Below, piece by piece: positions 6,709 to 23,244 of a DNA stretch of 64,000 bases; within the stretch, counting starts at the first letter, position 1, and each line of letters opens with the position of its first letter. The position numbers and the translations under genes were made by a program. The stretch covers positions 1,451 to 65,450 of the forward strand of contig PLZF01000098.1 in assembly GCA_003152015.1 (NCBI GenBank), given 5' to 3'. The notes under the pieces were generated by a model. That model saw nothing but the letters and a program-made list of their open reading frames with translations. It made no database searches and was not told the origin of the DNA. This DNA comes from Acidimicrobiaceae bacterium (GTDB lineage Bacteria > Actinomycetota > Acidimicrobiia > Acidimicrobiales > RAAP-2).

Positions 6709-6717
6709 ATTGACGAT

Positions 6718-6783
6718 CACCGGGTGCCGACCCGACGACCTCGCCGGATCCCGGTACGTAGTCGTCGGGTCGACACCCCGGTG
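6718..6783 (+). terminator. long imperfect GC-rich hairpin downstream of cspA (possible I-shaped terminator, no U-tract)
   Basis: Arms 6718-6739 and 6761-6783 are complementary. They include a perfect 12-bp core, cgacccgacgac / gtcgtcgggtcg. The hairpin starts 10 nt after the csp stop. Confidence 0.35.
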
Positions 6784-7006
6784 GCGTAGCGGCCACTGAA
6801 CTCAACGGTTCGGGCGGCATTTTTTTTGTAGCTCCCTTGGGCTGTCCCAAAGGTGAGTTGCGTCGCGTCACGTGCTCCGCCTGTAGGCGTTGAGCCATCG
6901 ACCCGGGCGAAGGCGTCAGCCATGGCGCTGGTGCTTGCCTACGAACCTAAGCATTCCGGACTACATCTGGGGCCCACCGGTCGAGGCGAGTTGCCCAGTT
7001 GGAAGA

Positions 7007-7477: not shown

Positions 7478-7558
7478 ACCAAGTCTTCGGAGCGGTGCCC
7501 GGGTCGGGATGGCCCGGTCGGCGCTATGCCGACCGGGCCATGCCCGACGATGGTCGGG

Positions 7559-8158: not shown

Positions 8159-8396
8159 GGCACCTCCCTTCGTAGGGCGCGCGATGGCGCCTTCCTCTGC
8201 TCGGTGTTGGCGGGCTCCGGCCATTGCATTCGGTCCCCGGACGGCGAGCGGGAAGGCATCGTTCGTCCTGGCTTTACGCCGTAGGGTGTGCGGCCGGTTG
8301 GTCTACGCCCAGGATTGCTTCGTGGTTTCGTCCTTGTTCGTCATCGGTCTTCGCACGCCGGCGCGTGGCCACAAGCCACACGTTCCCCAACGTGGT

Positions 8397-8510
8397 CGCG
8401 CTGATCTATCCGGGGTTCGGACGGATCTGCCGCTGCCACCATGCGTGATTCACTACCCACGAATGGTGGGGTTATCCTCGGATTCGGGACACTCCAGCAA
8501 ATTTGCGCTA
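8397..8510 (-). promoter_or_regulatory. candidate ydaO-type (c-di-AMP) riboswitch in the 5' UTR of the Rpf-like gene
   Basis: The minus-strand RNA reads GCGCAAAU...GAAUCCGAGGAUAACCCCAC-cauuc-GUGGGUAGUGAAUCAC...CCGAACCCCGGAUAGAUCAGCGCG. This parallels the Bacillus ydaO blocks AAUCAGAGCGGGGGACCCA...UGGGGUGAAUCC...CCCGAAUCCGUCAGC...GCG. An AT-rich promoter-like stretch lies just upstream (8500-8545). Confidence 0.4.
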
Positions 8511-8658
8511 GCTAAAGTATACATATTGGATGTATCGGGTCATGTCATGCCCATTGAGCTGGACTTATGGTGTTCTCAGGACCATAGGAATCGGTCACGG
8601 AGCGTGGGCGCAAAGTAAGCAATGTGTAGTCGGAGCGCCAAGGTGGCGGGCAAGGGGC

Positions 8659-10089
8659 TCACGTCTCCCCAACGCCACCCCGGCTGCGCCACTTCACCTC
8701 GACGACCGGGAGGAGCGGGGCCAGGGTCCCGGCCCGGATGCATCCGGCCCACACCCCGATCCCGTAGGCCACATCATCGGCCACCGACGCCAGCGACCAC
8801 CTGACCAGATCGAGGTCGGGGCGACGTCGCCACCATTCGACGGCCGGGGGGACCATGGACAGAGCCATTGCCGCTCGTCGCATCCGACGTCCCCCCACGG
8901 CACCCAGCACCAGGGCCGGGCCTGCCACCACGGTGGCCGCCCGGCCGAGCCCGAAGAGCGACCATCCGGTCCCCTGCACGCTCCACCGCATGGCCAAGGT
9001 CGGGGGGACACCGAGTGGCCACACCCGTCGGGCCATGGCTCCGCCGTACAGTGCCGTGACTGCCACTGCGATCCGGGGACGGCCGCCCAGGAGGGCGACG
9101 GCCGCCAGCGTTGGCCACGGTCGTAGCTCCGCCGGGGCAAGTCGTCCGGGGTGACGCCGGGAAAGGGGACCGGCGGAGGTTCCGTAGCAGAAGCGCTTCC
9201 GGAGCAACCCTCCCCACGATGTCGGCCCGTGATGCTCGATCTCAACGGATGGCAGGTATCTCACCTGCCATCCGTTGTCGACCAGGGACCACACCAGGTC
9301 CACGTCCTCCCCGAACCGGAGGTCGACGTCGAATCCTTCGCCCCATGCCTGGCGTCGCATCACCAGGGCGGCGGTGGGGACGTACCTGACCAGCCGGTCC
9401 GGGCCCACCTCGCTGGCCTCGGGCCCCATGTCGAGAGGAGAATGATGGCGGTTGAAGCGTTCCCGGGCCGAGCGGGAAGATCCGTTCGGCCGGATTCGGG
9501 GCGCCACCGCCCCCACGACCGGGTCGTCGAACATCTGTACCAGTGGGGCAAGCCAACCCGGCCCGGCCACGCAATCACTGTCGAGGAACGCCACCAACGG
9601 CGTGTCGACCAGGCCCATACCGTCATTCCGGGCGGCAGCCGGGCCACCGTTCACCGCGCGGGTCACCAGCCGGGCTCCGTGTCGGAGGCAGACCTCGGCC
9701 ACCGACTCCGGGTCCTCTGACCCGTCATCAACGACCACGACCGGGGTTGCTCGGCCCAACGAGGCGAGGCACCGCTCGAGTAGCTCACTCCGGTCGTGGA
9801 CCGGGATCACCACGGTCACGTCGGCGATGTCCGCCAGGCTTGACGGTGGGGGGACGGGATGAGCCATGCCCGCCTCGACCAGTCGGCGACCGAGCATGCG
9901 TTCGGCGTCGGTCGAGGAGTTGCCGCCGGTGAGCGCGGCTACCGCCGCCGGACCGTGGGCGGTGAGCCTGAGGATCCGCCCGGGACGGCCGCCGACCAAC
10001 ACGGTTCCTCCGGCGAAACTCCGGACCGATCTATCGAGAACCAGGCGGAATCCCGGCGGCAGGGCGGTCGGTGGCGGTGGAGCTGTCAA
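8659..10089 (-). CDS. mftF: mycofactocin biosynthesis glycosyltransferase MftF
   Basis: Frame 8659..10554 trimmed to the TTG at 10089, which overlaps the SDR stop. GT2 core VVIPVHDRSELLERCL...VVVDDGSEDP...FLDSDC plus a C-terminal membrane region. Last gene of the mft operon. Confidence 0.85.
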   Translation of the reverse strand: MTAPPPPTALPPGFRLVLDRSVRSFAGGTVLVGGRPGRILRLTAHGPAAVAALTGGNSSTDAERMLGRRLVEAGMAHPVPPPSSLADIADVTVVIPVHDRSELLERCLASLGRATPVVVVDDGSEDPESVAEVCLRHGARLVTRAVNGGPAAARNDGMGLVDTPLVAFLDSDCVAGPGWLAPLVQMFDDPVVGAVAPRIRPNGSSRSARERFNRHHSPLDMGPEASEVGPDRLVRYVPTAALVMRRQAWGEGFDVDLRFGEDVDLVWSLVDNGWQVRYLPSVEIEHHGPTSWGGLLRKRFCYGTSAGPLSRRHPGRLAPAELRPWPTLAAVALLGGRPRIAVAVTALYGGAMARRVWPLGVPPTLAMRWSVQGTGWSLFGLGRAATVVAGPALVLGAVGGRRMRRAAMALSMVPPAVEWWRRRPDLDLVRWSLASVADDVAYGIGVWAGCIRAGTLAPLLPVVEVKWRSRGGVGET

Positions 10090-10886
10090 AGAGACAGTCC
10101 ACCGTCCACCGGGATGACGGTGCCGGTGATGCCCCCGGTTTCGGGACCCGCCAACCACACAAGGGCGGCCGCCACCTCTTCTGGGGCCAGGAGCCGTTCC
10201 ACCGGCACCTGAGCCGCAAACGCCTGAGCACCCTCCAATCCGTAGAGCCGGGCACTTTCGTCGAGGATGGCGGTTGCGGTGGAGCCCGGGCTCACCCCTA
10301 CGGCCGTCACACCCGTCGCCCGGAGGTCCACCGCGAGGCCTCTGATCAGTCCGGCCACCCCCGCCTTGGCCGCGCTGTAGGCGGCCAGACCCGGGAGCCC
10401 CCGGGTGGCAGCCGCCGAGACCACGGCGATGAAGCGCCCCTCCCTCGGCATCGGACGCCGGAGAAGGGCGGGTATTCCCACTCGGGCCGCGGTCAGTGGA
10501 CCGCCGAGGTCGACGTCCATGACGGCCCGCAGCTGTGCCTCGGGCATCTCCCACAGCGGCACTCCGCCGGCGATGACGCCGGCCGCGGCAATGACGGCAT
10601 CGAGCCCACCGAAGAGTTCCTCGGCCCGGGAAACCGCCCCGCCCAGAGCCTCGGGGTCAGTGGCATCGGCCACGTGGGCGACCACCCCGCCTCCCGCCGA
10701 GTCCACCACGGCGTGGAGCTCATCGGCGGTCCCGAGCGGGTAAGGGAGCCGGGGATCGTCCGAGGCCAGGTCGACGGCGACCACCGACCACCCGGAGGCG
10801 GCCAGCCCACGTACGGTGGCAGCCCCGATGCCCCGGGCGGCCCCGGTGACAAGCGCGACCCGGTTCACAGTTGCGACCCGGTTCAC
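10086..10886 (-). CDS. mycofactocin-coupled SDR family oxidoreductase
   Basis: VTGAARGIGAATV Rossmann motif, the DDPRLPYPLGT insertion typical of the mft-associated SDR subfamily, and YSAAK active site. GTG start overlaps the mftE stop. Confidence 0.85.
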   Translation of the reverse strand: MNRVATVNRVALVTGAARGIGAATVRGLAASGWSVVAVDLASDDPRLPYPLGTADELHAVVDSAGGGVVAHVADATDPEALGGAVSRAEELFGGLDAVIAAAGVIAGGVPLWEMPEAQLRAVMDVDLGGPLTAARVGIPALLRRPMPREGRFIAVVSAAATRGLPGLAAYSAAKAGVAGLIRGLAVDLRATGVTAVGVSPGSTATAILDESARLYGLEGAQAFAAQVPVERLLAPEEVAAALVWLAGPETGGITGTVIPVDGGLSL

Positions 10887-10901
10887 AGTTGCGACCCGGT
10901 G
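10855..10901. repeat. 18-bp tandem duplication (2.6 copies) spanning the mftE stop / SDR start junction
   Basis: gcgacccggttcacagtt occurs at 10855-10872 and 10873-10890, followed by a partial copy. Each full unit carries a GTGA start/stop overlap. Confidence 0.95.
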
Positions 10902-11584
10902 ACATCGGATGAATCCACGAACCCGACGAGATCGTCGACGGCGGCCGTGAGGAGCCGCTTCCCCTCGTCCGGGCTGGCCGTGGTGGGGTCCCCGAGGACG
11001 CCGTTGGGGCTCACCGAACCGACCCCGCCGGCACGGAGTTCGGGAAGGATCGAGGCGAGGGGCCGGGTGTCACCCGGTGCGGCTGATTCGAGGCGGACGC
11101 GATCGGGGGCGATGGCCAACATCAGCGAGGTCTCGGTATGGCCGGCATGGGCGTCACCTTGCCACCGGGGACTCCACGTCCGCACGTTCCGGCCCTCGGA
11201 ACCCAGGAGGGCCATGGCCCGCTCGACAGGTTGGGAGTTCCCTCCGTGGGTGGAGACCACGACCACGGCGGCGAACGCCGCGCTGGCCGAACGCACCAAC
11301 TCCACCAGCACCAGCTCGGTGGCCGCCTGGCCGATGGAGAGGGTCCCGGGGAATCCATCGTGCTCGCCGCACGATCCGTAGGGGATCGCCGGGGCGATGA
11401 CGGCGTGGGGGAGTCGGATCCCGATGGCCGGATGGGAGACGATGGCCACGGCAATGTCGGTGTCGGTGGTGACCGGGAGGTGGGGCCCGTGCTGCTCGGT
11501 GGATCCCACCGGGACCAGGAGCACTGCCCCCCGGTCGGTGATGCTGGCGACGTCGGGCCACGCCAGCCGGGCCAGTGAGGTCAC
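10883..11584 (-). CDS. mftE: mycofactocin biosynthesis peptidyl-dipeptidase MftE (creatininase family)
   Basis: LLVPVGSTEQHGPHLPVTTDTDIA and STHGGN creatininase-fold motifs. GTGA overlap with the upstream EtfB-like gene. Confidence 0.9.
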   Translation of the reverse strand: MTSLARLAWPDVASITDRGAVLLVPVGSTEQHGPHLPVTTDTDIAVAIVSHPAIGIRLPHAVIAPAIPYGSCGEHDGFPGTLSIGQAATELVLVELVRSASAAFAAVVVVSTHGGNSQPVERAMALLGSEGRNVRTWSPRWQGDAHAGHTETSLMLAIAPDRVRLESAAPGDTRPLASILPELRAGGVGSVSPNGVLGDPTTASPDEGKRLLTAAVDDLVGFVDSSDVTGSQL

Positions 11585-12621
11585 CGCGTCCCCTCGTGGG
11601 CTGCTTCTTCACCAACCGGTTCCGTATCGAGGTAGCCGTGGCGGATGAGGAATGTCAACAAGGCGTCAGCGGCACCGGCGGCGTCGATGGGCCCGACGAC
11701 GGTGGGCGGGTCATGGGCCACCAGTGCGCCGGTGAGGGCCAGGAGTCGCAACCGGGGGTCGTCACTATCGGGGCCCGGCACCACCCGGGTGCGGGGTCGG
11801 AAGGGACGCACCGATCCCACCGCAACCTCGGCCGGCCCGACGGAGCCCGCACCTCGAATGGCACCGGGTCCACCGGCCGCGGTCACCTGGGGGATCTCGG
11901 TGCGTTGGGTCGCCAGCGTGGCGGTCAACGAGGCTCGACGGAGCCGGACGCCGGCTCCCTCCACCGAGCACACCGCCGGGCACGGGACATGAAGGCGTTC
12001 TCGCCACCCCCCATCCAATCGGCGTTCGGCCACCACCATCGATTCCTGATCGGTGGTGGCGATGGCCACCAGGCCCAGGGCTTGGGCCGCACCGAGCTCG
12101 TGGGCCAAAAACGCCGGCAATGCCCCGGTGCCCCGGTCGGAGGATCGGTCCCCGCACACCACCAATGACGGTCGACCCAACGGGGCCAGGGCGGCCACGA
12201 TCATCCCGGCCATGGCCCGTTCATCCGATCCCAGTTCGTCCACGTAGGCCTGATCCGAGGATGGGCTGCCGACGGCGATGCGGAGCACAGTGGCTCCGAG
12301 GGCTCGGGCATCCCGGAGGACGGCATCGGCGGAGGGTGGGGCGGCGGTGATCACCACCACGTGGCCGGACCAGGCCTCGGCGATGCGGAAGGAGTACTCC
12401 AGGGCGGCGGCGTCGGCCGGCGACAACCCGGTACTCCATGGCTCCCGGACCACGGTTCCCGACAATGGTTCGATCTGGGGGCGGAGATCGGTGATCCGGA
12501 TGCAGGCGACCACCATGGGCCCGGTTCGGGTGTCATCCATGGGCCCGGTTCGGGTGTCATCCATGGGCCCGGTTCGGGTGTCATCCATGGGCCCGGTTCG
12601 GGTGTCATCCATGGGGCTCAT
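11581..12621 (-). CDS. electron transfer flavoprotein beta subunit-like protein (FixA/EtfB); start uncertain (12621 or 12516)
   Basis: MVVACIRITDLRPQIEP...SPADAAALEYSFRIAE...VVITAAPPSADAVLRDARALGA is EtfB-like. The ATG at 12621 overlaps the fixX stop (ATGA) and adds MSP plus four MDDTRTGP repeats. The ATG at 12516 gives the conventional N-terminus. Confidence 0.7.
   Translation of the reverse strand: MSPMDDTRTGPMDDTRTGPMDDTRTGPMDDTRTGPMVVACIRITDLRPQIEPLSGTVVREPWSTGLSPADAAALEYSFRIAEAWSGHVVVITAAPPSADAVLRDARALGATVLRIAVGSPSSDQAYVDELGSDERAMAGMIVAALAPLGRPSLVVCGDRSSDRGTGALPAFLAHELGAAQALGLVAIATTDQESMVVAERRLDGGWRERLHVPCPAVCSVEGAGVRLRRASLTATLATQRTEIPQVTAAGGPGAIRGAGSVGPAEVAVGSVRPFRPRTRVVPGPDSDDPRLRLLALTGALVAHDPPTVVGPIDAAGAADALLTFLIRHGYLDTEPVGEEAAHEGTR
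12514..12615. repeat. perfect 24-bp tandem repeat, 4 copies plus a partial copy
   Basis: The unit catgggcccggttcgggtgtcatc occurs at 12514, 12538, 12562 and 12586. On the coding strand each unit encodes MDDTRTGP and contains an in-frame ATG. Confidence 0.95.
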
Positions 12622-12956
12622 CCCTGGTGGAAGACGACGCCCTGGCCGCCGTCGGGATAGGTCCAGGTGATGGCGCCCTCGTGGTTGCACACCATGTAAC
12701 AGGTCCCACACTCGAAGCACTCCTCGTAGTTGAAGAGGATGCCTCCCTCCGACGTGGGTGCGAACAGGTTGGCCGGACAGGCGGTTACGCAGGCCTTGGT
12801 GGTGCACGACCGGCACACATCGGAGTCGACGGTGATGTGGGCCCGCTCGCCCACCCTGAACTCGACAGTGGACATCCGGTCCTCGAAGGAGATGCCCCGC
12901 CAGATTCCCCCCGGCACCTCGTGGCCCGATCCGAGTACTCCACCCGCGGCGCTCAT
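12618..12956 (-). CDS. fixX: ferredoxin-like protein FixX
   Basis: Frame 12618..13610 trimmed to the ATG at 12956 (ATGA overlap with the fixC stop). C-terminal CRSCTTKACVTACPANLF...YEECFECGTCYMVCN...ITWTYPDGGQGVVF matches FixX. Confidence 0.8.
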   Translation of the reverse strand: MSAAGGVLGSGHEVPGGIWRGISFEDRMSTVEFRVGERAHITVDSDVCRSCTTKACVTACPANLFAPTSEGGILFNYEECFECGTCYMVCNHEGAITWTYPDGGQGVVFHQG

Positions 12957-14299
12957 CCGAAGACTCTCAGGGCCCGCACGGTGTCGGCTGCCAGTTGTCG
13001 GAGTTTGACGCCGTGTTTGGCCGCGGCCGACCGGGTCACCCGCAGGCCTCCCTGTTTCGGTACCGGGTTGGTCACGGTGAACATCCCGTCGACCAGGTCG
13101 CAGATGAGGCCCGGGTAGCGCTGCTGTATCCGCTCGGAGAGCACCAGATGCGGTGCCTTGCGCAGCCGTTTGTGGTCGGCCAGCACAAATTGACCTTCCA
13201 GGTCGGAGCGGTAGGAGGCCAATCCTTTCGCCGAGCAGTCTCCGGCGGCGATGGCCCGGTCGACCGCCCGCCCGGCGGCAAGTCCGGAGCCAATGGCGAA
13301 ATTGACGCCTTCCAGCCAGAGCCCGGCCGCCAGTGTCATGGCGGCGGCATCGCCGGCCACCAACATCCCGTCGGTGATCATGGTGGGCATGGTGTCGTAG
13401 CCCCCTTCGGGGATCAGGTGGGCGGCGTACTCGCGCAAGGTGGCGCCCCGCAGGTAGGGAGCGATGGAGGGATGGTTCTTGAGGTCGGCGATCAGCTCCT
13501 CGGGCCGGACCTTGGCCTCGGCCAGGTGGGTCAACGAGAGCACGACCCCGAGGCTCACGGTGTCCGAGTTGGTGTAGAGGAACCCGCCCCCGGGAATGCC
13601 CCGGGTGCAACCCAACATTTCGATATCGATGCCTTCGTCCCCCCGCAGCCCGAACCGCTCGTCGATGACGTGGCCGGGCAGGTCCAGGACCTCTTTCACC
13701 CCGAGGGTGTGGTGCGAGGCCTGGGCCGGCGCCATCAGCCCGGCCTCCTTGGCCAGAAACGAATTGACACCGTCACAGGCCACCACCACTTTGGCCCGTA
13801 GTTCGCCCTGGTCCCGATCGGTGCGAACCCCGATGATACGTCCCTGGGCGTTTCGCAACAGGCCGGTGGCGACCGTGGAGGTGACCAGTTGGGCACCAGC
13901 CTCGACAGCCTTGGTGGCCAGCCAGTTGTCGAAGCGGGATCGAACAGTGGTCATCCCGTTGTAGGGCGCCTCACCCCACGCCGCCGACCGGTAGTCGACG
14001 GACACCGACTGGGTGCCGGTCATCATCATGGTGGACCGCCGGACCACCCAGCGCTCGACGGGGACCTCGTTCCACCACTCGGGCACCACATCGTCGAGAA
14101 CCCGGCCGTAGACCACCCCGCCGTAGACGTTTTTGGAGCCGGGAAACGGCCCGCGCTCGACTAGGACAACCGATCGCCCGGCCCGGGCCAGGGCCAACGC
14201 TGTCGCCGAGCCCGCCGGACCGGCACCCACCACCACCGCATCGAAGACAGGGGTGTCGGACGAGACGCTGGCGGCGGGAACCATGTTGGCCTTACCCAT
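12953..14299 (-). CDS. fixC: FAD-dependent oxidoreductase FixC (ETF-quinone oxidoreductase family)
   Basis: FDAVVVGAGPAGSATALALARAGRSVVLVERG dinucleotide-binding motif. 448 aa. Flanked by ETF subunit genes and fixX. Confidence 0.85.
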   Translation of the reverse strand: MGKANMVPAASVSSDTPVFDAVVVGAGPAGSATALALARAGRSVVLVERGPFPGSKNVYGGVVYGRVLDDVVPEWWNEVPVERWVVRRSTMMMTGTQSVSVDYRSAAWGEAPYNGMTTVRSRFDNWLATKAVEAGAQLVTSTVATGLLRNAQGRIIGVRTDRDQGELRAKVVVACDGVNSFLAKEAGLMAPAQASHHTLGVKEVLDLPGHVIDERFGLRGDEGIDIEMLGCTRGIPGGGFLYTNSDTVSLGVVLSLTHLAEAKVRPEELIADLKNHPSIAPYLRGATLREYAAHLIPEGGYDTMPTMITDGMLVAGDAAAMTLAAGLWLEGVNFAIGSGLAAGRAVDRAIAAGDCSAKGLASYRSDLEGQFVLADHKRLRKAPHLVLSERIQQRYPGLICDLVDGMFTVTNPVPKQGGLRVTRSAAAKHGVKLRQLAADTVRALRVFG

Positions 14300-15374
14300 G
14301 ACCGCCCTCGATGTCGCTCGGGCCGTGGCCGGTCAGGACGCCGGTGGGAATCACGACGTTCAACCGGCGGGCCAACTCGATCAACAGCCCGCGTCCGTCG
14401 GTGATGAGACCCAGATCGGCCATGGCGGTCATCGGGCACGATGGATCGGTGTTCACACTCACCACATGACGGGGTGCCCCGAGCCCACCTACGTGCTGGG
14501 TGGCACCTGATACGCCCAAGGCGATGTAGAGGTCAGGGTCGATAGTGACACCGGTGGTGCCGATCTGACGTTCGTACCCGATCCATCCGGCGTCGGTGAC
14601 AACCCGGGTGGCCCCGGCCGACGCCCCCAGCGCGGCGGAGACCTGCACCAGCAGGTCGAAGGTGGCCCGGGCCCGATCCTCGGATGTGCCTGCCGCCAGA
14701 CCCGCCCCCCCTCCCAGCACCCGCACCGCGTCGGCCAGGTCCATGGTGGCGGGGTCCGGCTCCAAGATCTCGAGAACGTGAGGATCGAGAGGTCCGCTCC
14801 CGGGAGCGCCCTCGGGGGAAGGGCCGGAAAGGGTCACCGGCTCCGGCTCCCAGGGTGATGGTTGTCGCCGCGGCACCACCGAGCGGCTACCGGGAACCAG
14901 GGTGGCCACCGCCGGGCCGTCCACAGTGATCGTCACCAGGATCCGGTCGTCGAGGCGGGACACCTCGGCATCCACACCGCCACGGTGCTCGTTGTTACCG
15001 TTCCGTCCGTCCGGTCCGGGTCCCGGCCGGAAGGAGACGGACACGGCATGGGCAATGAAGGGACGGTCGAGGATCGCCGCCACCCTGGGAGCAAGATCTC
15101 GTCCGTCCGGCGACGAGGGCATCACCACCAACGGCACGTCGTGGAGGAGTGGGGCCAGGGCGGCCGCCAATGCTCCCGGCTGCAAGCCGGGACCTGTCTC
15201 GCAGAACCACGCCCGTTCCGCTGCCGCCAGCGACCGGGCCGCCTCGTTGGTTCCCGAGCCGACCACCACCACCAACCCCCCGGCTTCCGCCACCGCTTCG
15301 TCGCCTCCGACCGGCAATCGCCCGCCCCGGGCCACCACCACCGCAGCCGGTCGTCCGGCATCGAGCCCGCTCAC
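14292..15374 (-). CDS. electron transfer flavoprotein alpha subunit (FixB/EtfA)
   Basis: Frame trimmed to the GTG at 15374 (GTGA overlap with the upstream stop). C-terminal FAD-binding block RVVTDAGWIGYERQIGTTGVTIDPDLYIALGVSGATQH. Confidence 0.8.
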   Translation of the reverse strand: MSGLDAGRPAAVVVARGGRLPVGGDEAVAEAGGLVVVVGSGTNEAARSLAAAERAWFCETGPGLQPGALAAALAPLLHDVPLVVMPSSPDGRDLAPRVAAILDRPFIAHAVSVSFRPGPGPDGRNGNNEHRGGVDAEVSRLDDRILVTITVDGPAVATLVPGSRSVVPRRQPSPWEPEPVTLSGPSPEGAPGSGPLDPHVLEILEPDPATMDLADAVRVLGGGAGLAAGTSEDRARATFDLLVQVSAALGASAGATRVVTDAGWIGYERQIGTTGVTIDPDLYIALGVSGATQHVGGLGAPRHVVSVNTDPSCPMTAMADLGLITDGRGLLIELARRLNVVIPTGVLTGHGPSDIEGGHG

Positions 15375-17347: not shown

Positions 17348-17351
17348 CGGA

Positions 17352-19313
17352 TCACCTGGCGCTCTCTGCTCCGACGTGGGCGCCGCTTCCGATCTCCAGC
17401 GCTCGCCGGCGCCCTTCCAGTATCGCTTCGAGCACGGTGCGGGGCGCCACGCAGTCCCCGGCCCGCGGCGTCCCCGGCCGCTCCAGGTACAACGCTTCCT
17501 CCGGCAGTCGATGGTTGCAGTCGACGATGACGGCGCAGTCGATCTCCCGACGCTCCCCGGTCCAGACGTCGTCGAGCTGGGCCCGGCCACCCTTCGCCCC
17601 CCGGAGGATGGCCCGGAGCTCGCGTTTCACCCCGGCGCGTTGCAACCGGGTATTGGCATCGGCCAGATCTCCGGTGAGCGCCAGCTGGGTGCCGACGATC
17701 TGATCGGAGGTGACGATCGCCACCTCGCGCCCCTCGCCCGCCAGCCATTCGGCCGCGCCGACGGCGACAGGTCCACCCACCGGATCGTGGACCACCACCG
17801 GGCCGACCGGGAGCCGGTCCGGGCCTCCCGCCAGCAACGAGGCCACATCGACGACGGTGATGGTTTCGTCGACGGGAATCTCGAACGGCAACGGCCTGGA
17901 GCCGGTGGCGATGACCACCGCGGTGCCCTGGCCAGCGGCGGTGTCGAGATCAGAGGCAGTGAGCTCGGTGCCGAGGTCCACCTTCACCCCCGATACCCGG
18001 CACTCGCCGGCCAGCCACTCGGCCAGGTCGGCCATCCGCTCGCGGCCCGGGCCCACCGCCGCAGTTCGTGCCGATCCGCCCAGCTGCCGGTCCCGTTCAA
18101 CCAGCCGCACCCGGTGGCCCCGACCGGCCAGCACCCGGGCACACTCGAGGCCGGCCACGCCACCCCCCACCACCAGAACATCGCCGGCCACCGGGTCGGT
18201 GCCCCCGATATCCGGGTCGCTGGTCTCGTGGCCGCTACGCGGCTCGCCCACACAGCTCACTATGGGATTGCGGTTGTCGCGCACGTGACAGGCCTGATTG
18301 CAGAGAATGCACGGGCGAATCCTTTGCGCCGCCCCGTTGCGGAACAGGGTGACGAGCCGCGGGTCGGCGATCTGGGCCCGGGTCATCTCCACCAGGTCGG
18401 CGGTGGCGTCGTCCAGCGCGGCTTGGGCCACCCCGGGGTCGATCACGCTTCCCTGCAGCACCACCGGCACCCGGCCCTCCGCTGACCCACGCATGCGCCG
18501 GCACAGGTCGGCATTGAAGGCGGCCGGGGTATGGCCGTCGGGACGATAGGCGGACCCGGAGAACGGGCCACCCCGCACCACCACCACCAGGTCCACCTGG
18601 TCGGCTAGGGCCGCAACGTGATCGGCGGCGTGGTCGGGAGTGACCCCCGCCCACGGGGCCAGCTCATCGCAGCACAGCCGGATCGACACCAGGTGATCGT
18701 CGCCGATCGCATGGCGCACCGCGGCCACCACCTCGACCGTCAGCCGCAACCGGTCGGTCCCGTAGCCGTCGTCCCGCAGGTTGGTCAGGCCCGAATGGAA
18801 CTGGCGCAATAACGAGAAGGGACCGATGTCGATCTCCACACCGTCGAGACCCGAGGCGGTAGCCAATCGGGCGGCGTGGGCGAATCCGGCCACCAGCTGG
18901 CCGATCTCGTCCTGCTCCATCTCCATGGGCATCTCCCGGTTGATGGCATCGGCCACCGGCGAGGGCGCCCACATCACCGATTGGGAGTACGCGCTGGATC
19001 CCTGTCCGCCGGCGTGGCCCAGTCCAGCCATCACCAGGGTCCCGTGCGGGTGACAGGCTGCGGCAGTGGCCGCCCACCCGGGCCCGCACTCGGTGGCCAG
19101 CGGCGCACGTTCATAGGGCCAGTCCGACGGGTGCACCGAGGCCGTCTCGGTCACGATGATGCCGCTGCCCCCCGCCGCCCGGGCCTGGTAGTAGGCCACG
19201 TGACGATGGCTGATGGCACGGTCGTCGCCCAAATTGGTCTCGTGGGGACCGAAGATCACCCTCGAAGGGGCGGTTCTTCCGGCCACGGTGATGGCGTCGA
19301 CCAGGCTGGCCAC
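17352..19313 (-). CDS. FadH/OYE-family NADH:flavin oxidoreductase, mycofactocin-associated paralog
   Basis: 653 aa. OYE barrel, Cys cluster CILCNQACHVRDNRNPIVSCVGEP, and VLVVGGGVAGLECARVLAGRGHRVRLVE. Starts 3 nt after the mftC stop. Confidence 0.85.
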   Translation of the reverse strand: MASLVDAITVAGRTAPSRVIFGPHETNLGDDRAISHRHVAYYQARAAGGSGIIVTETASVHPSDWPYERAPLATECGPGWAATAAACHPHGTLVMAGLGHAGGQGSSAYSQSVMWAPSPVADAINREMPMEMEQDEIGQLVAGFAHAARLATASGLDGVEIDIGPFSLLRQFHSGLTNLRDDGYGTDRLRLTVEVVAAVRHAIGDDHLVSIRLCCDELAPWAGVTPDHAADHVAALADQVDLVVVVRGGPFSGSAYRPDGHTPAAFNADLCRRMRGSAEGRVPVVLQGSVIDPGVAQAALDDATADLVEMTRAQIADPRLVTLFRNGAAQRIRPCILCNQACHVRDNRNPIVSCVGEPRSGHETSDPDIGGTDPVAGDVLVVGGGVAGLECARVLAGRGHRVRLVERDRQLGGSARTAAVGPGRERMADLAEWLAGECRVSGVKVDLGTELTASDLDTAAGQGTAVVIATGSRPLPFEIPVDETITVVDVASLLAGGPDRLPVGPVVVHDPVGGPVAVGAAEWLAGEGREVAIVTSDQIVGTQLALTGDLADANTRLQRAGVKRELRAILRGAKGGRAQLDDVWTGERREIDCAVIVDCNHRLPEEALYLERPGTPRAGDCVAPRTVLEAILEGRRRALEIGSGAHVGAESAR

Positions 19314-19316
19314 CTG

Positions 19317-20606
19317 TCAGTGTGGGTGGCTGTGGGGGTCGAAGGCGGCGAGGGGATTCTCGTCGCAGGCCCGGTCAGGACGGCGGGGGAGGAGGGCCAC
19401 CGCCACCGGGGTGGCCGACGGGCCCGACAGGTCCGGGCCGCCCGGGGCGGTGCGTGGTGACGTGCGTGAGTGGTCGGGCGATGACTGAGGCAGGACGGTG
19501 TCCCCCACCGCGGCCAGCAACGCCTCACCGTTGCCGAGCACACACTCGGGGTCGGGCCCGTCGAGGGGAAGCCCTGTAAAGAACTTGGCCGCCATGCATC
19601 CGCCCCGGCAGGCGTCGTAGCTCCCGCACGACCGACACGCTCCCCCGGTATCGGGCCGGCGAAGGTCGGTGAAGAGGTCGGAGGACTTCCAGACCCGGTC
19701 GAAACCACCAGGGGACCGCACGTTCCCGGCCAGAAATTCGTCATGAATGGCGAAGGGGCAGGCGTAGACATCGCCGACCGGGTCGACCAGGCAGACCACC
19801 CGGCCAGCGCCACACAGGTTGAGTCCGGGGAGCGATTCGCCGTAGCCGGCCAGATGGAAGAAGGAGTCACCGGTCAGTACCTGCTCACCGTGGGCCAGCA
19901 GCCATGCATACAGCGTCCGCTGTTGGTCGGCGGTCGGATGGAGTTCGTCCCACACGTCGGCCCCGCGCCCCGAGGGGCGTAACCGGGTGAGTCGGAGTTG
20001 GGCTTGGTACTTGTCGGCGAGCGCCTTGAAGGCGTCGAGTTGGGAGACGTTCTGGCGGGTGACCACCACCGAGAGTTTGAATCCGACGAAGCCGGCCGCG
20101 GCCATCCGCTCCAGGGCCCGAATGGCGGTGTCGAAGGAGCCGATGCCCCGTATTGCGTCGTTGACGTCGGAGGTGGCGCCGTCGAGGGAGATCTGCACGT
20201 CCACGTAGTCGCTCGATGCCAGTCGCTCGGCCACCTCGGGGGTGATTCTCGATCCATTGGTGGAGAACTTCACCCCGACGTGGTGGTCGGTGGCGTAGTC
20301 GACCAACTCCCAGAAGTCGCGGCGGATGGTGGGCTCGCCTCCGCCGATATTGACGTAGAAGATCTGCATCCGCTCGAACTCGTCGATGAGCGTCTTGCAC
20401 TCGGCGGTGGACAGCTCCCTCGGATCGCGGCGTCCCGAGCTCGAGAGGCAGTGCACACAGGCCAAGTTACAGGCGTAGGTGAGCTCCCAAGTCAGGCAGA
20501 TGGGGGCGTCGAGGCCCAGTTGGAACTGGTCGACCAATCGCTCGGTGGTCGGGCGCTCGGTGGTCGGGCGCCCGGTGGTCGGGCGCTCGGTGGTGACCAG
20601 GGTCAT
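19317..20606 (-). CDS. mftC: mycofactocin radical SAM maturase MftC
   Basis: Radical SAM motif CNLACVHC, SPASM-type C-terminal Cys clusters (CRSCGSYDACRGGC...CV), and its position after mftB (ATGA overlap). Confidence 0.95.
   Translation of the reverse strand: MTLVTTERPTTGRPTTERPTTERLVDQFQLGLDAPICLTWELTYACNLACVHCLSSSGRRDPRELSTAECKTLIDEFERMQIFYVNIGGGEPTIRRDFWELVDYATDHHVGVKFSTNGSRITPEVAERLASSDYVDVQISLDGATSDVNDAIRGIGSFDTAIRALERMAAAGFVGFKLSVVVTRQNVSQLDAFKALADKYQAQLRLTRLRPSGRGADVWDELHPTADQQRTLYAWLLAHGEQVLTGDSFFHLAGYGESLPGLNLCGAGRVVCLVDPVGDVYACPFAIHDEFLAGNVRSPGGFDRVWKSSDLFTDLRRPDTGGACRSCGSYDACRGGCMAAKFFTGLPLDGPDPECVLGNGEALLAAVGDTVLPQSSPDHSRTSPRTAPGGPDLSGPSATPVAVALLPRRPDRACDENPLAAFDPHSHPH
20541..20598. 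repeat. 15-bp tandem repeat, about 3.7 copies, in the first codons of mftC
   Basis: The unit ctcggtggtcgggcg occurs at 20541 and 20556, at 20571 with one mismatch, and as a partial copy from 20586. It encodes TTERP TTGRP TTERP TTER. Confidence 0.95.
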
Positions 20607-20905
20607 GGCGCTCTCCGTTCGCAGATCATGCCGGACTCGGCCAGGGTGGTCAGAGCCCGCTCGTAGTTGGGAAGATCATCGGGCGCCACGCCCGCCGCCG
20701 TGCAGGCATCTCGACCGGTGGGTTGGGCGGCCAGGGACGACACCACCGCCAACAGGGTGGGGCTCTTCAAAAAGGAGAGCCGACGGGTACCGAAGTGGTA
20801 CGCCAGTGCGCCGAACGACTCCGGCCTGAGAGACACCTGCGGGTGCAGGGCCCAGGGAAGGGAGGAGTCGAAGGACGTGGTACCAGTCGGGACGGTGGGT
20901 GGCAT
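20603..20905 (-). CDS. mftB: mycofactocin biosynthesis chaperone MftB (PqqD-like RRE protein)
   Basis: 100-aa ORF. LHPQVSLRPESFGALAYHFGTRRLSFLKSP is the conserved MftB core. Lies between mftA and mftC. Confidence 0.9.
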   Translation of the reverse strand: MPPTVPTGTTSFDSSLPWALHPQVSLRPESFGALAYHFGTRRLSFLKSPTLLAVVSSLAAQPTGRDACTAAGVAPDDLPNYERALTTLAESGMICERRAP

Positions 20906-20945
20906 TAGCCGTGCAGGGCTGTGGCGGGTATCGGCGTCGTAGGGC

Positions 20946-21092
20946 TTAGTAGACGCCGCACATGCCGTCGATCGACACGTCCTCGACCAGCAGTTCTGCT
21001 TCGACGAATTGATCGTCGTCGGTGCGCCCCTCGGCCAACGAGTTTGTGGTGGGGACCGACGAATCGCGGTTCTCGGTGGTGGGATCAGTCAT
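20946..21092 (-). CDS. mftA: mycofactocin precursor peptide MftA (48 aa, not in the ORF track)
   Basis: My own translation gives MTDPTTENRDSSVPTTNSLAEGRTDDDQFVEAELLVEDVSIDGMCGVY*. The canonical C-terminal IDGMCGVY is present. GGGAGG RBS lies 5 nt upstream, and the gene sits 40 nt upstream of mftB. Confidence 0.9.
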   Translation of the reverse strand: MTDPTTENRDSSVPTTNSLAEGRTDDDQFVEAELLVEDVSIDGMCGVY

Positions 21093-21139
21093 GGGAACCT
21101 CCCGAATTCGGCCGGCTCGGGCCGGCAGGTTAACGATGT

Positions 21140-21160
21140 ATTGACTTTATAGCACTCAAT
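21140..21160. promoter_or_regulatory. imperfect inverted repeat ATTGA-N11-TCAAT in the AT-rich mftA/mftR divergent promoter region (candidate MftR operator)
   Basis: ATTGA at 21140-21144 and TCAAT at 21156-21160, inside the only AT-rich stretch of the 66-nt intergenic region. It overlaps the first possible mftR start codon. Confidence 0.25.
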
Positions 21161-21872
21161 GCCAAAATGGAAGCCTATGGCCGATGTGGACACAGAAGGG
21201 ACCGAGGGGGTCGGAGCGCCCGCGGCCCGCCCATCCGCCGATGTGGCCCGCGGTCGCCGGCCCAGCACCACCCGAGAGCACATCGCCCGGAAAGCCCTCG
21301 ACCTCTTCGACCGGCGTGGGTTCGACGCCACCACCGTCGACGAGATCGCCTCGGCCGTGGGGATCAGCCGGCGCACCTTCTTCCGCTACTACGACTCCAA
21401 ACGCGATGTGGTGTGGGGGGAGTTCGACGCCGAGATGGTTCGGCTTCGGGACCAGCTCATGGGTGCTCCCCGCGACGAGCCGATGATGGACGTGCTGCGG
21501 CGGGCGGTGGTGGCGACCAATCGATTCGGGGCCGGGGAGCTCGATGAGTTGCGGATCCGGATGGGCCTCATCAGCACGGTCCCGGCCCTGGTAGCGCACT
21601 CCGCGGTGAGGTACACCGAGTGGTGCGATGTGGTCGCCGACTTCGTGGCCCGCCGGGTCGGAGGATCTCCGGAGGGCCTGGGGCCACAAACGGTGGCTCG
21701 AGCCGCCCTGGGTGCGGCGATGGCGGCGTTTGCCTGTTGGGCCCGCCACGACAGCGATGACCTGACCGGCGAGGTTGATCGGGCGTTCCGGCTTTTGGCT
21801 ACCGGTTTCGACGAGAACCGGCTCGGACGGTGGGTCACCAGTGACCCACCGTCATCGTCATCCGGGGCCTGA
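21159..21872 (+). CDS. mftR: TetR-family mycofactocin system transcriptional regulator MftR (alternative start 21177)
   Basis: HTH block TREHIARKALDLFDRRGFDATTVDEIASAVGISRRTFFRYYDSKRDVV. Divergent from mftA. Confidence 0.8.
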   Translation: MPKWKPMADVDTEGTEGVGAPAARPSADVARGRRPSTTREHIARKALDLFDRRGFDATTVDEIASAVGISRRTFFRYYDSKRDVVWGEFDAEMVRLRDQLMGAPRDEPMMDVLRRAVVATNRFGAGELDELRIRMGLISTVPALVAHSAVRYTEWCDVVADFVARRVGGSPEGLGPQTVARAALGAAMAAFACWARHDSDDLTGEVDRAFRLLATGFDENRLGRWVTSDPPSSSSGA

Positions 21873-21953
21873 CTCGACGCGACGGCTGGGTCGGCGCGAA
21901 GCTGGCGGCGAACCGCACGACGTCAGAGCCGCCAAATGGAGAGGACCACTCAC

Positions 21954-23105
21954 ATGAAGACCCGCGCAGCAGTCTGTACAGGGCTCCACGAACCTTGGAA
22001 AGTCGAAGAGATCGAAGTCGACGAGCCTGGTCCGCACGAAGTGCGGGTCCAGATGGCGTATGCGGGTATGTGTCACTCCGATGAGCACCTGCGCACCGGC
22101 GACATGGCACCTCCGCCGGAGGTCATGTCGGTGTTCGGGGTCGACTCCCTCTACCCGATCGTCGGCGGCCACGAGGGTGCGGGCATCGTCTCCGAGGTCG
22201 GGCCGGGCGTCGAGACGTTGGCCAAGGGCGACCACGTGGCCATGTCATTCATCCCCTCGTGTGGGCGTTGCCACTGGTGCGCGTCGGGCCGCCAGTACCT
22301 CTGCGATCTGGGGATGACGATTCTCGCCGGTCCGATGATGAGCGACGGCCAGTGGCGTCACCACCTCGATGGTCAGAAGCTGAACCGGATGACCCAGCTG
22401 GGGACGTTCACCGATTCGTTGCTGGCCAACGAGAACTCGCTGGTCAAGATCGATTCGGGGGTGTCGATGAAGGCCGCCGCTCTGATCAGCTGCGGACTGG
22501 CCACCGGATTCGGCTCGGTGGTCGACCGTGCTGCCGTGAAGCCGGGAGAGACGGTGGTCGTCATCGGCTGTGGCGGTGTCGGCTCCGGAGCGCTCCAAGG
22601 GGCGAAGATCGGTGGAGCGCGTTACATTGTCGCCGTCGACCCGCTGCCCTTCAAAGTGGAGAAGGCCAAGCAGATCGGCGCTACCCATGGCGCGGCGTCC
22701 ATCCTCGAAGCCGCCATGATGCTCCCCGAGCTCACCGAGGGACGCATGGCCGACGTGGTCATTCTCACCCCCGGGGTCCTCACCGGAGATCTGGTCGGGC
22801 CGGCCATGCAGTTGGCCAGCAAGGACGGCCGGGTGGTGGCGACCGCCATCGCTCCGATCACCCAGGACCAGGTCTCGCTCAATTTGTTCAACCTGGCAAT
22901 GTTCAATCAGTCCCTGCTCGGAACGGTCTTCGGCTCGTGCAGCCCGCGGGTGCAGATCCCCAATCTTCTCCGTCTGTACCAGGCCGGCCTGCTTGAGGTG
23001 GACAAGTTGATCACCCAGGAATACACGCTCGATCAGGTACAGAACGGCTATGACGACCTGGCGGCCGGAGTCAATGTCCGCGGCGTGGTGAAGTTCGATA
23101 TCTGA
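21954..23105 (+). CDS. NDMA-dependent (nicotinoprotein) zinc alcohol dehydrogenase, mycofactocin-associated type
   Basis: Frame trimmed to the ATG at 21954, with a GGAGAGG RBS. GMCHSDEH and GHEGAGIV zinc-ADH motifs, plus the extended loop DMAPPPEVMSVFGVDSLYP typical of the NDMA-ADH subfamily. Confidence 0.85.
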   Translation: MKTRAAVCTGLHEPWKVEEIEVDEPGPHEVRVQMAYAGMCHSDEHLRTGDMAPPPEVMSVFGVDSLYPIVGGHEGAGIVSEVGPGVETLAKGDHVAMSFIPSCGRCHWCASGRQYLCDLGMTILAGPMMSDGQWRHHLDGQKLNRMTQLGTFTDSLLANENSLVKIDSGVSMKAAALISCGLATGFGSVVDRAAVKPGETVVVIGCGGVGSGALQGAKIGGARYIVAVDPLPFKVEKAKQIGATHGAASILEAAMMLPELTEGRMADVVILTPGVLTGDLVGPAMQLASKDGRVVATAIAPITQDQVSLNLFNLAMFNQSLLGTVFGSCSPRVQIPNLLRLYQAGLLEVDKLITQEYTLDQVQNGYDDLAAGVNVRGVVKFDI

Positions 23106-23200: not shown

Positions 23201-23244
23201 CTGAGGGCGGACTGAGGGCGGACTGAGGGCGGACTGAGGGCCCC
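23201..23244. repeat. 11-bp tandem repeat, 4 copies, intergenic
   Basis: ctgagggcgga three times, then ctgagggcccc. Lies between the ADH stop and the esterase start. Confidence 0.9.

Follow-up and report, generated by a model that had tools for sequence, protein, structure and literature searches.

The window, a 64-kb stretch of a metagenome scaffold, carries a mycofactocin locus whose genes are listed in Table 1. A minus-strand operon running from 21092 down to 8659 comprises 12 genes in the order mftA-mftB-mftC-OYE1-OYE2-etfA-fixC-fixX-etfB-mftE-SDR-mftF. The genes mftR and ADH are divergent from it on the plus strand, as the preliminary description of this DNA had stated, although its count of 13 operon genes was one too high. 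The junctions from mftA to mftF are +40, -4, +3, +4, -4, -8, -4, -4, -4, -4 and -4 nt (spacers positive, overlaps negative), matching exactly those given earlier, and the genes are translationally coupled. The overlap between the SDR gene and mftF requires the TTG start of the latter; a public gene call uses GTG 10002, and the upstream TTG is favored because the match to the MftF model already begins at residue 17 when translation starts at TTG. Inside the operon, promoter-like and terminator-like sites are no more numerous than expected from shuffled sequence (5 terminator-like sites vs. 4.4 expected). The next minus-strand ORF (7559–8224) lies ~430–500 nt past the mftF stop, the distance varying with the start codon chosen. 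The mftR-mftA intergenic region is presumed to be the promoter/operator; it has a single sigma-70-like match (plus strand, 21141–21168) and no significant RNA structure.

Table 1. Features of the mycofactocin locus. Scores are bits against the curated NCBIfam model and its cut-off, or against the PDB chain named.
Feature	Position	Strand	Evidence
mftF, glycosyltransferase; TTG start 10089, alternative GTG 10002	8659..10089	-	TIGR03965, 383 (cut-off 280)
Mycofactocin-coupled SDR, subfamily 2	10086..10886	-	TIGR04504, 336 (cut-off 250)
mftE, peptidase	10883..11584	-	TIGR03964, 275 (cut-off 172)
etfB, mycofactocin-associated ETF beta (FixA-like)	11581..12621	-	TIGR04503, 327 (cut-off 200)
fixX, ferredoxin-like, two 4Fe-4S motifs (8 Cys)	12618..12956	-	7KOE_D, 59 (E=3e-15)
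fixC, ETF:quinone-oxidoreductase-like FAD protein	12953..14299	-	7KOE_C, 264 (E=2e-77)
etfA, mycofactocin-associated ETF alpha (FixB-like)	14292..15374	-	NF038209, 422 (cut-off 240)
OYE2, three-domain FMN / 4Fe-4S / dinucleotide-binding flavoenzyme	15371..17347	-	TIGR03997, 1000 (cut-off 793)
OYE1, three-domain FMN / 4Fe-4S / dinucleotide-binding flavoenzyme	17352..19313	-	TIGR03996, 963 (cut-off 628)
mftC, radical SAM/SPASM maturase	19317..20606	-	TIGR03962, 650 (cut-off 265)
mftB, peptide chaperone	20603..20905	-	TIGR03967, 109 (cut-off 33)
mftA, precursor peptide, C-terminal IDGMCGVY	20946..21092	-	TIGR03969, 51 (cut-off 25)
mftR-mftA divergent intergenic region, 66 nt	21093..21158	.	AT-richer stretch, read directly
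mftR, TetR-family regulator, divergent from operon	21159..21872	+	TIGR03968, 244 (cut-off 225)
NDMA-dependent (nicotinoprotein-type) zinc ADH	21936..23105	+	TIGR03989, 486 (cut-off 440)

The family identities rest on these profile scores, which are well beyond chance. In a search of the window proteins with the mycofactocin models, MftA, MftB, MftC, MftE, MftF, MftR, OYE_1, OYE_2 and mft_etfA/B score above the cut-offs. FixC (329 bits, cut-off 610) and FixX (49 bits, cut-off 166) fall below those of the NCBIfam FixC and FixX models and are classed as homologues. The canonical mft locus is organized as mftR and mftABCDEF(G), for example Rv0691c-Rv0697 of M. tuberculosis. Its representatives on plasmids of Tsukamurella tyrosinosolvens (L087) and Streptomyces sp. 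NBC_00080 (L175) share with the window MftA (IDGMCGVY), MftB, MftC, MftE, MftF and MftR, all above equivalog cut-offs in the window, together with the divergent position of mftR and the nicotinoprotein ADH and SDR partners. The window locus differs in that its SDR gene sits between mftE and mftF, that mftD and mftG are absent, and that the six genes OYE1 to etfB occupy the mftD slot of both plasmid loci. A tblastn search of the 64-kb window with two genuine MftD, two genuine MftG, E. coli LldD and BetA as queries found neither mftD nor mftG and recovered the positive controls.

The locus is a typical example of a second, widespread type of mycofactocin cluster, in which mftD and mftG are absent and OYE1-OYE2-EtfA-FixC-FixX-EtfB stand between mftC and mftE. 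The EtfA of this locus has a relative in 332 species-representative genomes, 80 of which carry the cassette in the same position. Clusters with the same arrangement occur in Acidimicrobiales, Frankia, Thermopolyspora, Saccharopolyspora, Amycolatopsis and Streptomyces plasmids, and the segment OYE2-etfA-fixC-fixX-etfB is invariant wherever contigs reach far enough. Since the cassette loci are phylogenetically related, independent events are fewer than the counts suggest. The plasmid of Streptomyces sp. NBC_00557 (L086), Saccharopolyspora hordei (L088), Amycolatopsis acidiphila (L174) and many Acidimicrobiales MAGs (L003–L082) have the same layout. These loci correspond to the NCBIfam "mycofactocin-associated ETF" and "mycofactocin system FadH/OYE oxidoreductase 1 and 2" families, and share with the window the protein families, the core order and the absence of mftD and mftG; the window proteins exceed all four curated cut-offs. 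The proximity of ADH to mftR is also conserved in relatives. The differences are an additional SDR gene between OYE1 and OYE2 in most Acidimicrobiales relatives, absent from the window, the position of mftE after mftF in actinomycete versions, and in-frame repeats that are expanded in the window copies of etfB, mftC and the SDR gene. The mftC repeat is at the N-terminus (15 nt x3.7, 20539–20594), as is that of EtfB, with four PMDDTRTG units (24 nt x4.3, 12513–12615) whose copy number is variable. A version with one OYE, which is OYE2-like, is found on haloarchaeal plasmids (H. turkmenica, Halolamina), and its proteins have mft-specific models as best matches. One locus (L137) codes for genuine OYE1 and OYE2 with no ETF within 15.5 kb, so the OYE and ETF genes are not obligately linked.

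The cassette and mftD do not occur together in the loci examined. Neither MftD nor MftG is encoded near the cassette in any of ~108 loci (~10 kb around each locus, or per replicon), and the cassette is absent from all 24 mftD loci (19 from metagenomes, 4 plasmids and L175). Among 12 mftC-bearing plasmids, 8 have the cassette without mftD and 4 have mftD without the cassette. MftG is confined to mftD-type loci; such loci without a nearby mftG are common, and none has the cassette. A published table lists Haloterrigena turkmenica, Halolamina sp. CBA1230 and Amycolatopsis acidiphila, in each of which we found cassette loci, as MftG-negative genome-wide, and likewise Frankia and Saccharopolyspora species (PMC11778925). 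An LldD/MftD-like FMN_dh gene adjoins ADH in two cassette loci (L039 and L101), its products reaching 192 and 260 bits with the model for MftD, under the cut-off of 471. Other loci lack both mftD and the cassette in their neighborhood, for example a syntenic close relative (L097) with ADH, mftB-C-E-SDR-F and GH43, which implies that the MftD step can be encoded elsewhere or be dispensable. Many Streptomyces carry MftD, which a cassette plasmid might therefore obtain from its host. The interpretation given in the preliminary description is thus partly supported. The integration of the six flavoprotein genes in the operon, their slot and their order are upheld, and recurrence inside mft operons, the test it had set itself, speaks strongly for integration. 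The etfA-fixC-fixX-etfB (B-C-X-A) order is a family-wide trait and not one of this locus. The statement that no description of such wiring was known is not upheld: curated NCBIfam models exist for the association (NF038209, TIGR04503, TIGR03996, TIGR03997), RefSeq annotates the genes by the corresponding mft-associated names, and mftD-less clusters with OYE were published in 2024 for Saccharopolyspora (PMC11162802). The locus type is thus known and curated in annotation databases while functionally uncharacterised; no published account of the function of the OYE/ETF replacement genes was found in the literature.

OYE1 and OYE2 are three-domain FMN/4Fe-4S enzymes that match FadH, NCR, histamine dehydrogenase and TMADH. 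The top PDB matches of OYE1, the more divergent paralogue, are FadH (1PS9), NCR (6QKG) and histamine dehydrogenase (6DE6). The cassette has OYE2 as its conserved core enzyme: with FixX (84%) and FixC (78.5%) it is among the three most conserved proteins of the locus (median identity to relatives 82%, vs. 76% for MftC). Both paralogues retain the four cluster cysteines and the first GxGxxG, and the NADPH loop GCGGIG of FadH reads DPVGGP in OYE1 and DELGFH in OYE2. The OYE His/Tyr pair is lost from OYE1; in OYE2 the Tyr that serves FadH and NCR as proton donor is missing, but the His common to amine dehydrogenases is present. The third domain of OYE2 aligns with histamine dehydrogenase and not with FadH, whose alignment stops at residue 514. 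TMADH and histamine dehydrogenase (PDB 1DJN, 1O94, 3K30, 6DE6) share with the OYE proteins the FMN, 4Fe-4S and dinucleotide domain architecture, the absence of a functional NADPH loop and, in gene context, an adjacent ETF, which is their electron acceptor (PMC6502838). The differences are that both OYE proteins lack the Cys carrying 6-S-cysteinyl-FMN and score higher overall to the FadH/NCR reductases, that two paralogues stand in place of a homodimer, and that the ETF is accompanied by FixCX.

The four ETF/Fix proteins correspond subunit by subunit to EtfABCX of Thermotoga maritima (7KOE) and are homologous to Azotobacter FixABCX. Chains 7KOE_C and 7KOE_D are the closest solved relatives of FixC and FixX, both Cys motifs of FixX aligning with the latter. 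The C-terminal FAD domain of EtfA matches ETF alpha chains (5OL2_A, 1EFV_A, 7KOE_B), and the top PDB matches of EtfB are beta chains of bifurcating type (4KPU_B, 7KOE_A). In contrast to those systems the window order is B-C-X-A instead of ABCX, and EtfA and EtfB are strongly diverged (47–88 bits on generic ETF models, cut-offs 445–600). The context is a cofactor operon and not nitrogen fixation or NADH oxidation, and bifurcation is putative here. The nucleotide-binding motif GRQAIDGDTAQVGP of EtfB reads GDRSSDRGTGALPA in this locus, which makes the presence of a bifurcating FAD/NADH site uncertain.

We tentatively favor that the OYE enzymes oxidize C3 of the mycofactocin core. This would account for the MftD step and probably also for that of MftG, and the electrons would leave through ETF and FixCX to menaquinone. 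The amine intermediate AHDP would be made by MftA, MftB, MftC and MftE as in the canonical pathway. OYE2 would probably form a dimer with OYE1, the more degenerate of the two. It would be an FMN/4Fe-4S dehydrogenase like those for trimethylamine and histamine, not an NAD(P)H-linked reductase, and would oxidize C3 of the pyrrolidinone ring by two electrons. Oxidation of AHDP (C3-NH2) to an imine and its hydrolysis to the keto-amide premycofactocin would accomplish the MftD step without O2, a reaction of the same class as the oxidative amine deamination of TMADH and histamine dehydrogenase. The same chemistry could convert mycofactocinol (C3-OH) to mycofactocinone, the MftG step. The 4Fe-4S cluster of the OYE enzymes would hand electrons singly to the dedicated ETF, which would dock on these enzymes, and FixC/FixX would relay them to menaquinone. 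We count as support that an mftD-independent route exists the cassette type of the mftD-less Saccharopolyspora clusters and the production of MMFT-2, MMFT-2H2 and MMFT-3 by S. erythraea (PMC9679996). Several points weigh against this reading: the searches for mftD and mftG covered ~10 kb per locus or single replicons, many Streptomyces have MftD, some loci have neither mftD nor the cassette, L137 has both OYE genes but no ETF nearby, L039 and L101 have the FMN_dh gene, and both OYE proteins score closer to FadH and NCR and lack the Cys for covalent FMN. In addition, an electron chain of four proteins seems more than a low-flux biosynthetic step would need by itself.

Such a chain, with its ETF-QO-like component, suits a high-flux respiratory link, and the cassette might be an electron outlet only, replacing MftG between mycofactocinol and the respiratory chain while MftD or another enzyme encoded elsewhere performs the deamination. 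What replaces MftG in the ~25% of mftC genomes without it is a published open question (PMC11778925), the cassette organisms are MftG-negative genome-wide, and clustering of mftD is not obligatory, as the loci without mftD and cassette show. However, the strongest anticorrelation is with mftD, the common mftD loci without nearby mftG have no cassette, no locus combines mftD with the cassette, and the cassette lies exactly at the mftD slot; we consider an outlet-only role unlikely. Less probable still is that EtfAB-FixCX bifurcates as the FixABCX type does, sending one electron of NADH or mycofactocinol to quinone and one, through FixX, to a low-potential branch that drives a difficult reduction by the NCR-like OYE enzymes or reductively activates the radical SAM enzyme MftC. 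The bifurcating EtfABCX is the best match of FixC and FixX, EtfB is closest to bifurcating Etfs and both FixX clusters are kept; against this, the EtfB motif is altered, canonical mft loci manage without a dedicated reductant, OYE2 has lost the reductase Tyr and retains the His shared with amine dehydrogenases, and the exclusivity with mftD is left unexplained. We give very little credence to the genes being a catabolic passenger in the MftR regulon, independent of mycofactocin or consuming it (e.g., in enoyl/dienoyl-CoA metabolism with ETF feeding quinone), with no role in biosynthesis or recycling. The OYE family does resemble 2,4-dienoyl-CoA reductase, ETF and ETF-QO classically serve beta-oxidation, and MftR is reported to respond to long-chain acyl-CoAs (PMC11778925). 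Yet the genes are coupled between mftC and mftE inside a biosynthetic operon without acyl-CoA dehydrogenase, Acidimicrobiia and Halobacteria alike keep them in this position, the families are mft-specific enough for curated equivalog-type models, and a passenger role does not explain why mftD and mftG are never found with the cassette.

In the favored reading, oxidation of the mycofactocin core by the OYE enzymes, the NDMA-dependent ADH is the enzyme presumed to reduce mycofactocin and would, together with the co-encoded SDR, load electrons onto it. The locus would then encode a full alcohol-to-quinone route.

The mycofactocin genes of the window form a minus-strand operon with the order mftA, mftB, mftC, OYE1, OYE2, etfA, fixC, fixX, etfB, mftE, SDR and mftF. 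Gene order and coordinates of the preliminary description are borne out by this layout, as are its tight junctions (spacings of +40, -4, +3, +4, -4, -8, -4, -4, -4, -4 and -4 nt in operon order), while its count of 13 genes is corrected to 12. Note that the 4-nt overlap of SDR and mftF rests on a TTG start of mftF; a public gene call has the GTG at 10002, and the alignment to the MftF model begins upstream of this GTG. The gene identities proposed earlier hold in NCBIfam profile searches, in which every assignment lies above its cut-off, FixC and FixX excepted. MftA, whose carboxyl terminus is VSIDGMCGVY, reaches 51 bits on TIGR03969 (cut-off 25), and the MftB chaperone, the MftC rSAM/SPASM maturase, the MftE peptidase and the MftF glycosyltransferase all pass their equivalog cut-offs. 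Promoter- or terminator-like motifs within the operon occur at the count expected from shuffled sequences, and three pieces folded as RNA (mftA leader, mftA-mftB spacer and 3' region of mftF) showed no more structure than shuffled controls. EtfA is 99% and 95% identical to its counterparts in the nearest genomes, both Acidimicrobiales MAGs.

Perfect in-frame tandem repeats are found inside coding regions of the window, and a perfect 11-nt repeat is intergenic (see table). The etfB repeat is present in two copies in L001, a public 180-kb wood-metagenome contig (ENA) otherwise 100% identical to the window, and in one copy in L003 and L004, relatives that are 93-96% identical. Because copy number differs among these contigs, the repeat is recent, and either population-variable or assembly-unstable. 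Elsewhere in the window, translations look like a cluster of genes for a glutamine-synthetase-like protein, an SDR, a class-I glutamine-amidotransferase-like hydrolase and an aldehyde dehydrogenase, which as read from these translations resemble an amine catabolic set of the gamma-glutamylation type.

Coordinates of features in the window and in comparison loci (L-handles: loci or contigs from public genomes, metagenomes and plasmids)
Feature	Location	Position	Strand	Remarks
mftA	window	20946-21092	-	first gene of operon; followed by mftB and mftC
mftF	window	8659-10089	-	last gene of operon
mftR	window	21159-21872	+	
NDMA-type ADH	window	21936-23105	+	
etfB amino terminus repeat	window	12513-12615		24 nt x4.3 (PMDDTRTG x4)
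mftC amino terminus repeat	window	20539-20594		15 nt x3.7 (TTERP-like)
mftE/SDR junction repeat	window	10855-10900		18 nt x2.6 (VNRVAT); at SDR start
Repeat at 3' end of unrelated ORF	window	36351-36452		18 nt x5.7 (HRLVDR x5)
Perfect 11-nt tandem repeat	window	23201-23241		CTGAGGGCGGA x3.7; intergenic, ADH to downstream carboxylesterase gene
Glutamine-synthetase-like gene cluster	window	47544-52733		
MoxR/VWA pair	L044	2-2632		
MoxR/VWA pair	L161	3146-5350		
MoxR/VWA pair	L142	4291-6318		
MoxR/VWA pair	L090	4272-7446		
MoxR/VWA pair	L091	17919-21043		
Extra SDR gene	L009, L013-L015, L018, L019, L022-L026, others	~7100-8000		locus coordinates
FMN_dh-family gene	L039	1-918	-	
FMN_dh-family gene	L101	4824-5855	-	
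Locus lacking the cassette	L097 (Ga0302196_10001830)	7951-16325		
OYE-only locus	L137 (Ga0193743_1001820)	5143-10974		
Cassette-type locus	L086	1-29194		Streptomyces sp. NBC_00557 plasmid

The six genes between mftC and mftE, hereafter the cassette, code for proteins of which four match mycofactocin-specific models. OYE1 and OYE2 each exceed the curated cut-off of their own model (OYE1, 963 bits on TIGR03996 versus 525 on TIGR03997; OYE2, 1000 bits on TIGR03997 versus 394 on TIGR03996). EtfA scores 422 bits on NF038209 (mft_etfA, cut-off 240) and EtfB 327 bits on TIGR04503 (mft_etfB, cut-off 200). With FixC and FixX they make up all four subunits of FixABCX/EtfABCX systems (EtfA/FixB, EtfB/FixA, FixC, FixX). 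FixC (329 bits, cut-off 610) and FixX (49 bits, cut-off 166) are clear homologs that stay below cut-offs of E. coli type; their best matches are chains C and D of 7KOE (Thermotoga maritima EtfABCX), whose chains A and B are also among the best matches. The FAD-domain signature is retained in EtfA, and FixX has 8 Cys residues with two predicted 4Fe-4S clusters.

The earlier statement that no description of such wiring was known does not stand. NCBIfam models named for mycofactocin-associated ETF exist and both are passed here, the OYE proteins pass models entitled "mycofactocin system FadH/OYE family oxidoreductase 1/2", and RefSeq annotates loci in the same terms, for example on a Streptomyces plasmid. 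The arrangement is known and already curated, and the window adds one more example. With EtfA as the seed of a survey, 332 of 185,579 species-representative genomes proved to have a relative. ETF genes do recur inside mft loci: tblastn of the window proteins recovered an identical order in the best 80 of the 332 genomes, where the OYE2-etfA-fixC-fixX-etfB core is invariant wherever the contig reaches. These genomes are mostly Acidimicrobiales, but also include Thermopolyspora, Protofrankia, Frankia, Dermatophilaceae, Micrococcales and Mycobacteriales MAGs. The B-C-X-A order of the ETF/Fix genes is thus real in the window, yet it is a trait of the family and no peculiarity of this locus. The cassette is also found in Saccharopolyspora hordei, in Amycolatopsis acidiphila and on six Streptomyces plasmids, and in a form with one OYE gene on plasmids of the haloarchaea Haloterrigena turkmenica and Halolamina, whose cassette proteins still have mft-specific models as best matches.

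Most Acidimicrobiales relatives carry an extra SDR gene between OYE1 and OYE2, whose product shares 31-37% identity with the operon SDR; it is missing from the window and from about 10 other loci. The Streptomyces cassette-type loci lie on large linear or circular plasmids (L086 and five others), and in L086 type I polyketide synthase genes lie immediately upstream of the locus. Both locus types are mobile within this genus, since the Streptomyces plasmid L175 carries a canonical locus with mftD and mftG. The idea that cassette plasmids must be self-sufficient, their Streptomyces hosts being otherwise without mycofactocin, was dropped because many Streptomyces encode MftD. A gene pair coding for a MoxR-type AAA ATPase and a VWA-domain protein recurs beside mft loci of differing types in bacteria and haloarchaea; in the latter it directly adjoins the OYE gene.

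The absence of mftD and mftG from the window, claimed previously, was confirmed by tblastn over its 64 kb, which revealed no FMN_dh homolog at E<=1 (three MftD queries and E. coli LldD) and no GMC homolog (two MftG queries and E. coli BetA). The MftD and MftG queries came from annotated canonical loci on plasmids of Tsukamurella (L087), Mycolicibacterium chubuense (L085) and Streptomyces sp. NBC_00080 (L175), and the positive controls were recovered. The same queries, LldD and BetA included, had no match in any cassette locus, these absences being local to each locus or replicon, save for an LldD-like gene in L039 and L101. In both of these cassette-type loci it codes for a member of the FMN-dependent alpha-hydroxy-acid-dehydrogenase family and adjoins an NDMA-type ADH gene. 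On the MftD model its products reach 192 and 260 bits (cut-off 471; true MftD, 697), about equal to their LldD scores, and might be distant MftD-like enzymes or unrelated lactate dehydrogenases. None of the recurrent flanking genes of the relatives (GH43, DUF998, aminotransferase, amidohydrolase, carboxylesterase and others) belongs to the FMN_dh or GMC families.

The two gene sets exclude each other within the loci and replicons covered. A metagenome sample seeded with MftC yielded 18 cassette-type and 19 mftD-type loci and none with both, besides 24 loci with neither set on the contig and 19 too short to be classed. Among 12 mftC plasmids, eight carry the cassette but not mftD, and the other four mftD but not the cassette. 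The surveys covered about 130 loci, from haloarchaea, Acidimicrobiia and several orders of actinomycetes; in none of them did the cassette accompany mftD or mftG, and MftG was seen solely in mftD-type loci. Reduced variants were also found. In L097, which is closely related and syntenic (80% identity in MftC, same ADH upstream, GH43 downstream), mftC is followed directly by mftE-SDR-mftF without the six genes, and mftD was not found within its 16.5 kb. Between its mftC and mftE, the locus L137 has genuine genes for OYE1 (770 bits) and OYE2 (873 bits), with ETF/FixCX genes nowhere on its 15.5-kb contig, defining an OYE-only variant. The SDR as a substitute for MftD was ruled out by its co-occurrence with mftD in loci L135, L136 and L164.

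OYE1 and OYE2 are old-yellow-enzyme relatives of the three-domain subclass. Their closest solved structures are 2,4-dienoyl-CoA reductase, 2-naphthoyl-CoA reductase, histamine dehydrogenase and trimethylamine dehydrogenase (TMADH), and they align over their full length to 3K30, 6DE6 and 1DJN. They share with TMADH and histamine dehydrogenase the FMN TIM barrel, the 4Fe-4S linker and a dinucleotide domain without use of NAD(P)H. In both, the first dinucleotide fold is retained, as are the four 4Fe-4S cluster Cys. Where FadH has its NADPH glycine loop GCGGIG, OYE1 reads DPVGGP, OYE2 DELGFH and the archaeal protein DTNKHA, and the NADPH-domain insertion of FadH is absent. The alignment of OYE2 to FadH ends at residue 514. 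Histamine dehydrogenase aligns well with the third domain of OYE2 (VVVVDELGFHQATSTAELLADRGCRVEIVT in OYE2, VVVYDDDHYYLGGVVAELLAQKGYEVSIVT in histamine dehydrogenase). OYE2 keeps the barrel His common to amine dehydrogenases and has lost the Tyr of FadH/NCR. Unlike in TMADH and histamine dehydrogenase, the Cys of the VPHC motif that carries 6-S-cysteinyl-FMN is absent (SAHL in OYE2, GPHE in OYE1). Conservation within the locus is highest for OYE2, FixX and FixC and lowest for EtfA and EtfB. Given this conservation of OYE2 and the OYE2-like character of the single haloarchaeal OYE, OYE2 looks like the core enzyme of the cassette and OYE1 like its accessory partner. According to the paper on the NCR structure, TMADH and histamine dehydrogenase hand electrons from their 4Fe-4S cluster straight to ETF (PMC6502838). 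An amine substrate and ETF as acceptor may likewise be proposed for the OYE enzymes, the one basis for this being adjacency to and the 4-nt overlap with etfA.

The reading we favor, tentatively and at somewhat short of an even chance, is that the OYE enzymes oxidize C3 of the mycofactocin core and that the electrons pass via ETF/FixCX to menaquinone. OYE2, with or without OYE1, would oxidize C3 of the pyrrolidinone core, with AHDP, the amine intermediate before premycofactocin, as substrate (the MftD reaction) and probably also mycofactocinol (the MftG reaction). Electrons would leave OYE2 one at a time for the adjacent, translationally coupled ETF, and then reach FixCX and menaquinone. This mechanism would account for the operon position of the cassette, its lack of co-occurrence with mftD or mftG, the lost pyridine-nucleotide site and the production of mycofactocin in an mftD-less genus of cassette type. 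The MftD reaction is O2-dependent. In a broader and somewhat unlikely version, one system, made up of OYE2 (alone or with OYE1), its own ETF and FixCX, would perform both C3 oxidations, namely O2-free deamination of AHDP and re-oxidation of mycofactocinol, wired directly to menaquinone and possibly with a low-potential branch through FixX; mftD plus mftG and OYE/ETF/FixCX would then be interchangeable sets swapping between loci.

Replacement of MftG only by the cassette is unlikely. A bifurcating system that supplies low-potential electrons to a reductive OYE or to MftC is quite improbable; EtfB is nearest to bifurcating-type beta subunits, and their conserved motif G(R/K)QAIDGDTxQVGP is altered to GDRSSDRGTGALPA. 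That OYE/ETF form an unrelated, co-regulated catabolic module is very improbable; etfA and etfB sit within the mft operon, translationally coupled between mftC and mftE, and have the same context in the relatives. Each of these three alternatives explains the exclusivity with mftD less well than C3 oxidation by the OYE enzymes does. The interpretation of the cassette in the preliminary description is partly supported.

The function of the cassette appears so far unpublished: among the papers searched, none combines "mycofactocin" and "electron transfer flavoprotein". MftD was recognized as not universal by Haft (2011), a paper in which ETF is unmentioned. About 25% of genomes with mftC are without MftG, and the MftG paper leaves it open if other enzymes stand in for it (PMC11778925). 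According to its supplement tables, H. turkmenica, Halolamina sp. CBA1230 and A. acidiphila are MftG-negative genome-wide, and the published tables give the same for Frankia, Saccharopolyspora and cultured Acidimicrobiia; the loci of the first three are of cassette type. Saccharopolyspora mycofactocin clusters miss mftD (PMC11162802), and S. erythraea makes methylmycofactocinone and methylmycofactocinol (PMC9679996). For both gaps, the MftG-less genomes and the mftD-less Saccharopolyspora, the obvious candidate is the cassette. Note that rules of antiSMASH type demanding TIGR03966 miss or misclassify clusters of cassette type. The example in the window comes from an Acidimicrobiales population associated with wood. 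If the proposed mechanism is true, the cassette would define a premycofactocin synthase that works without O2 and a second path from the mycofactocin pool into the respiratory chain.
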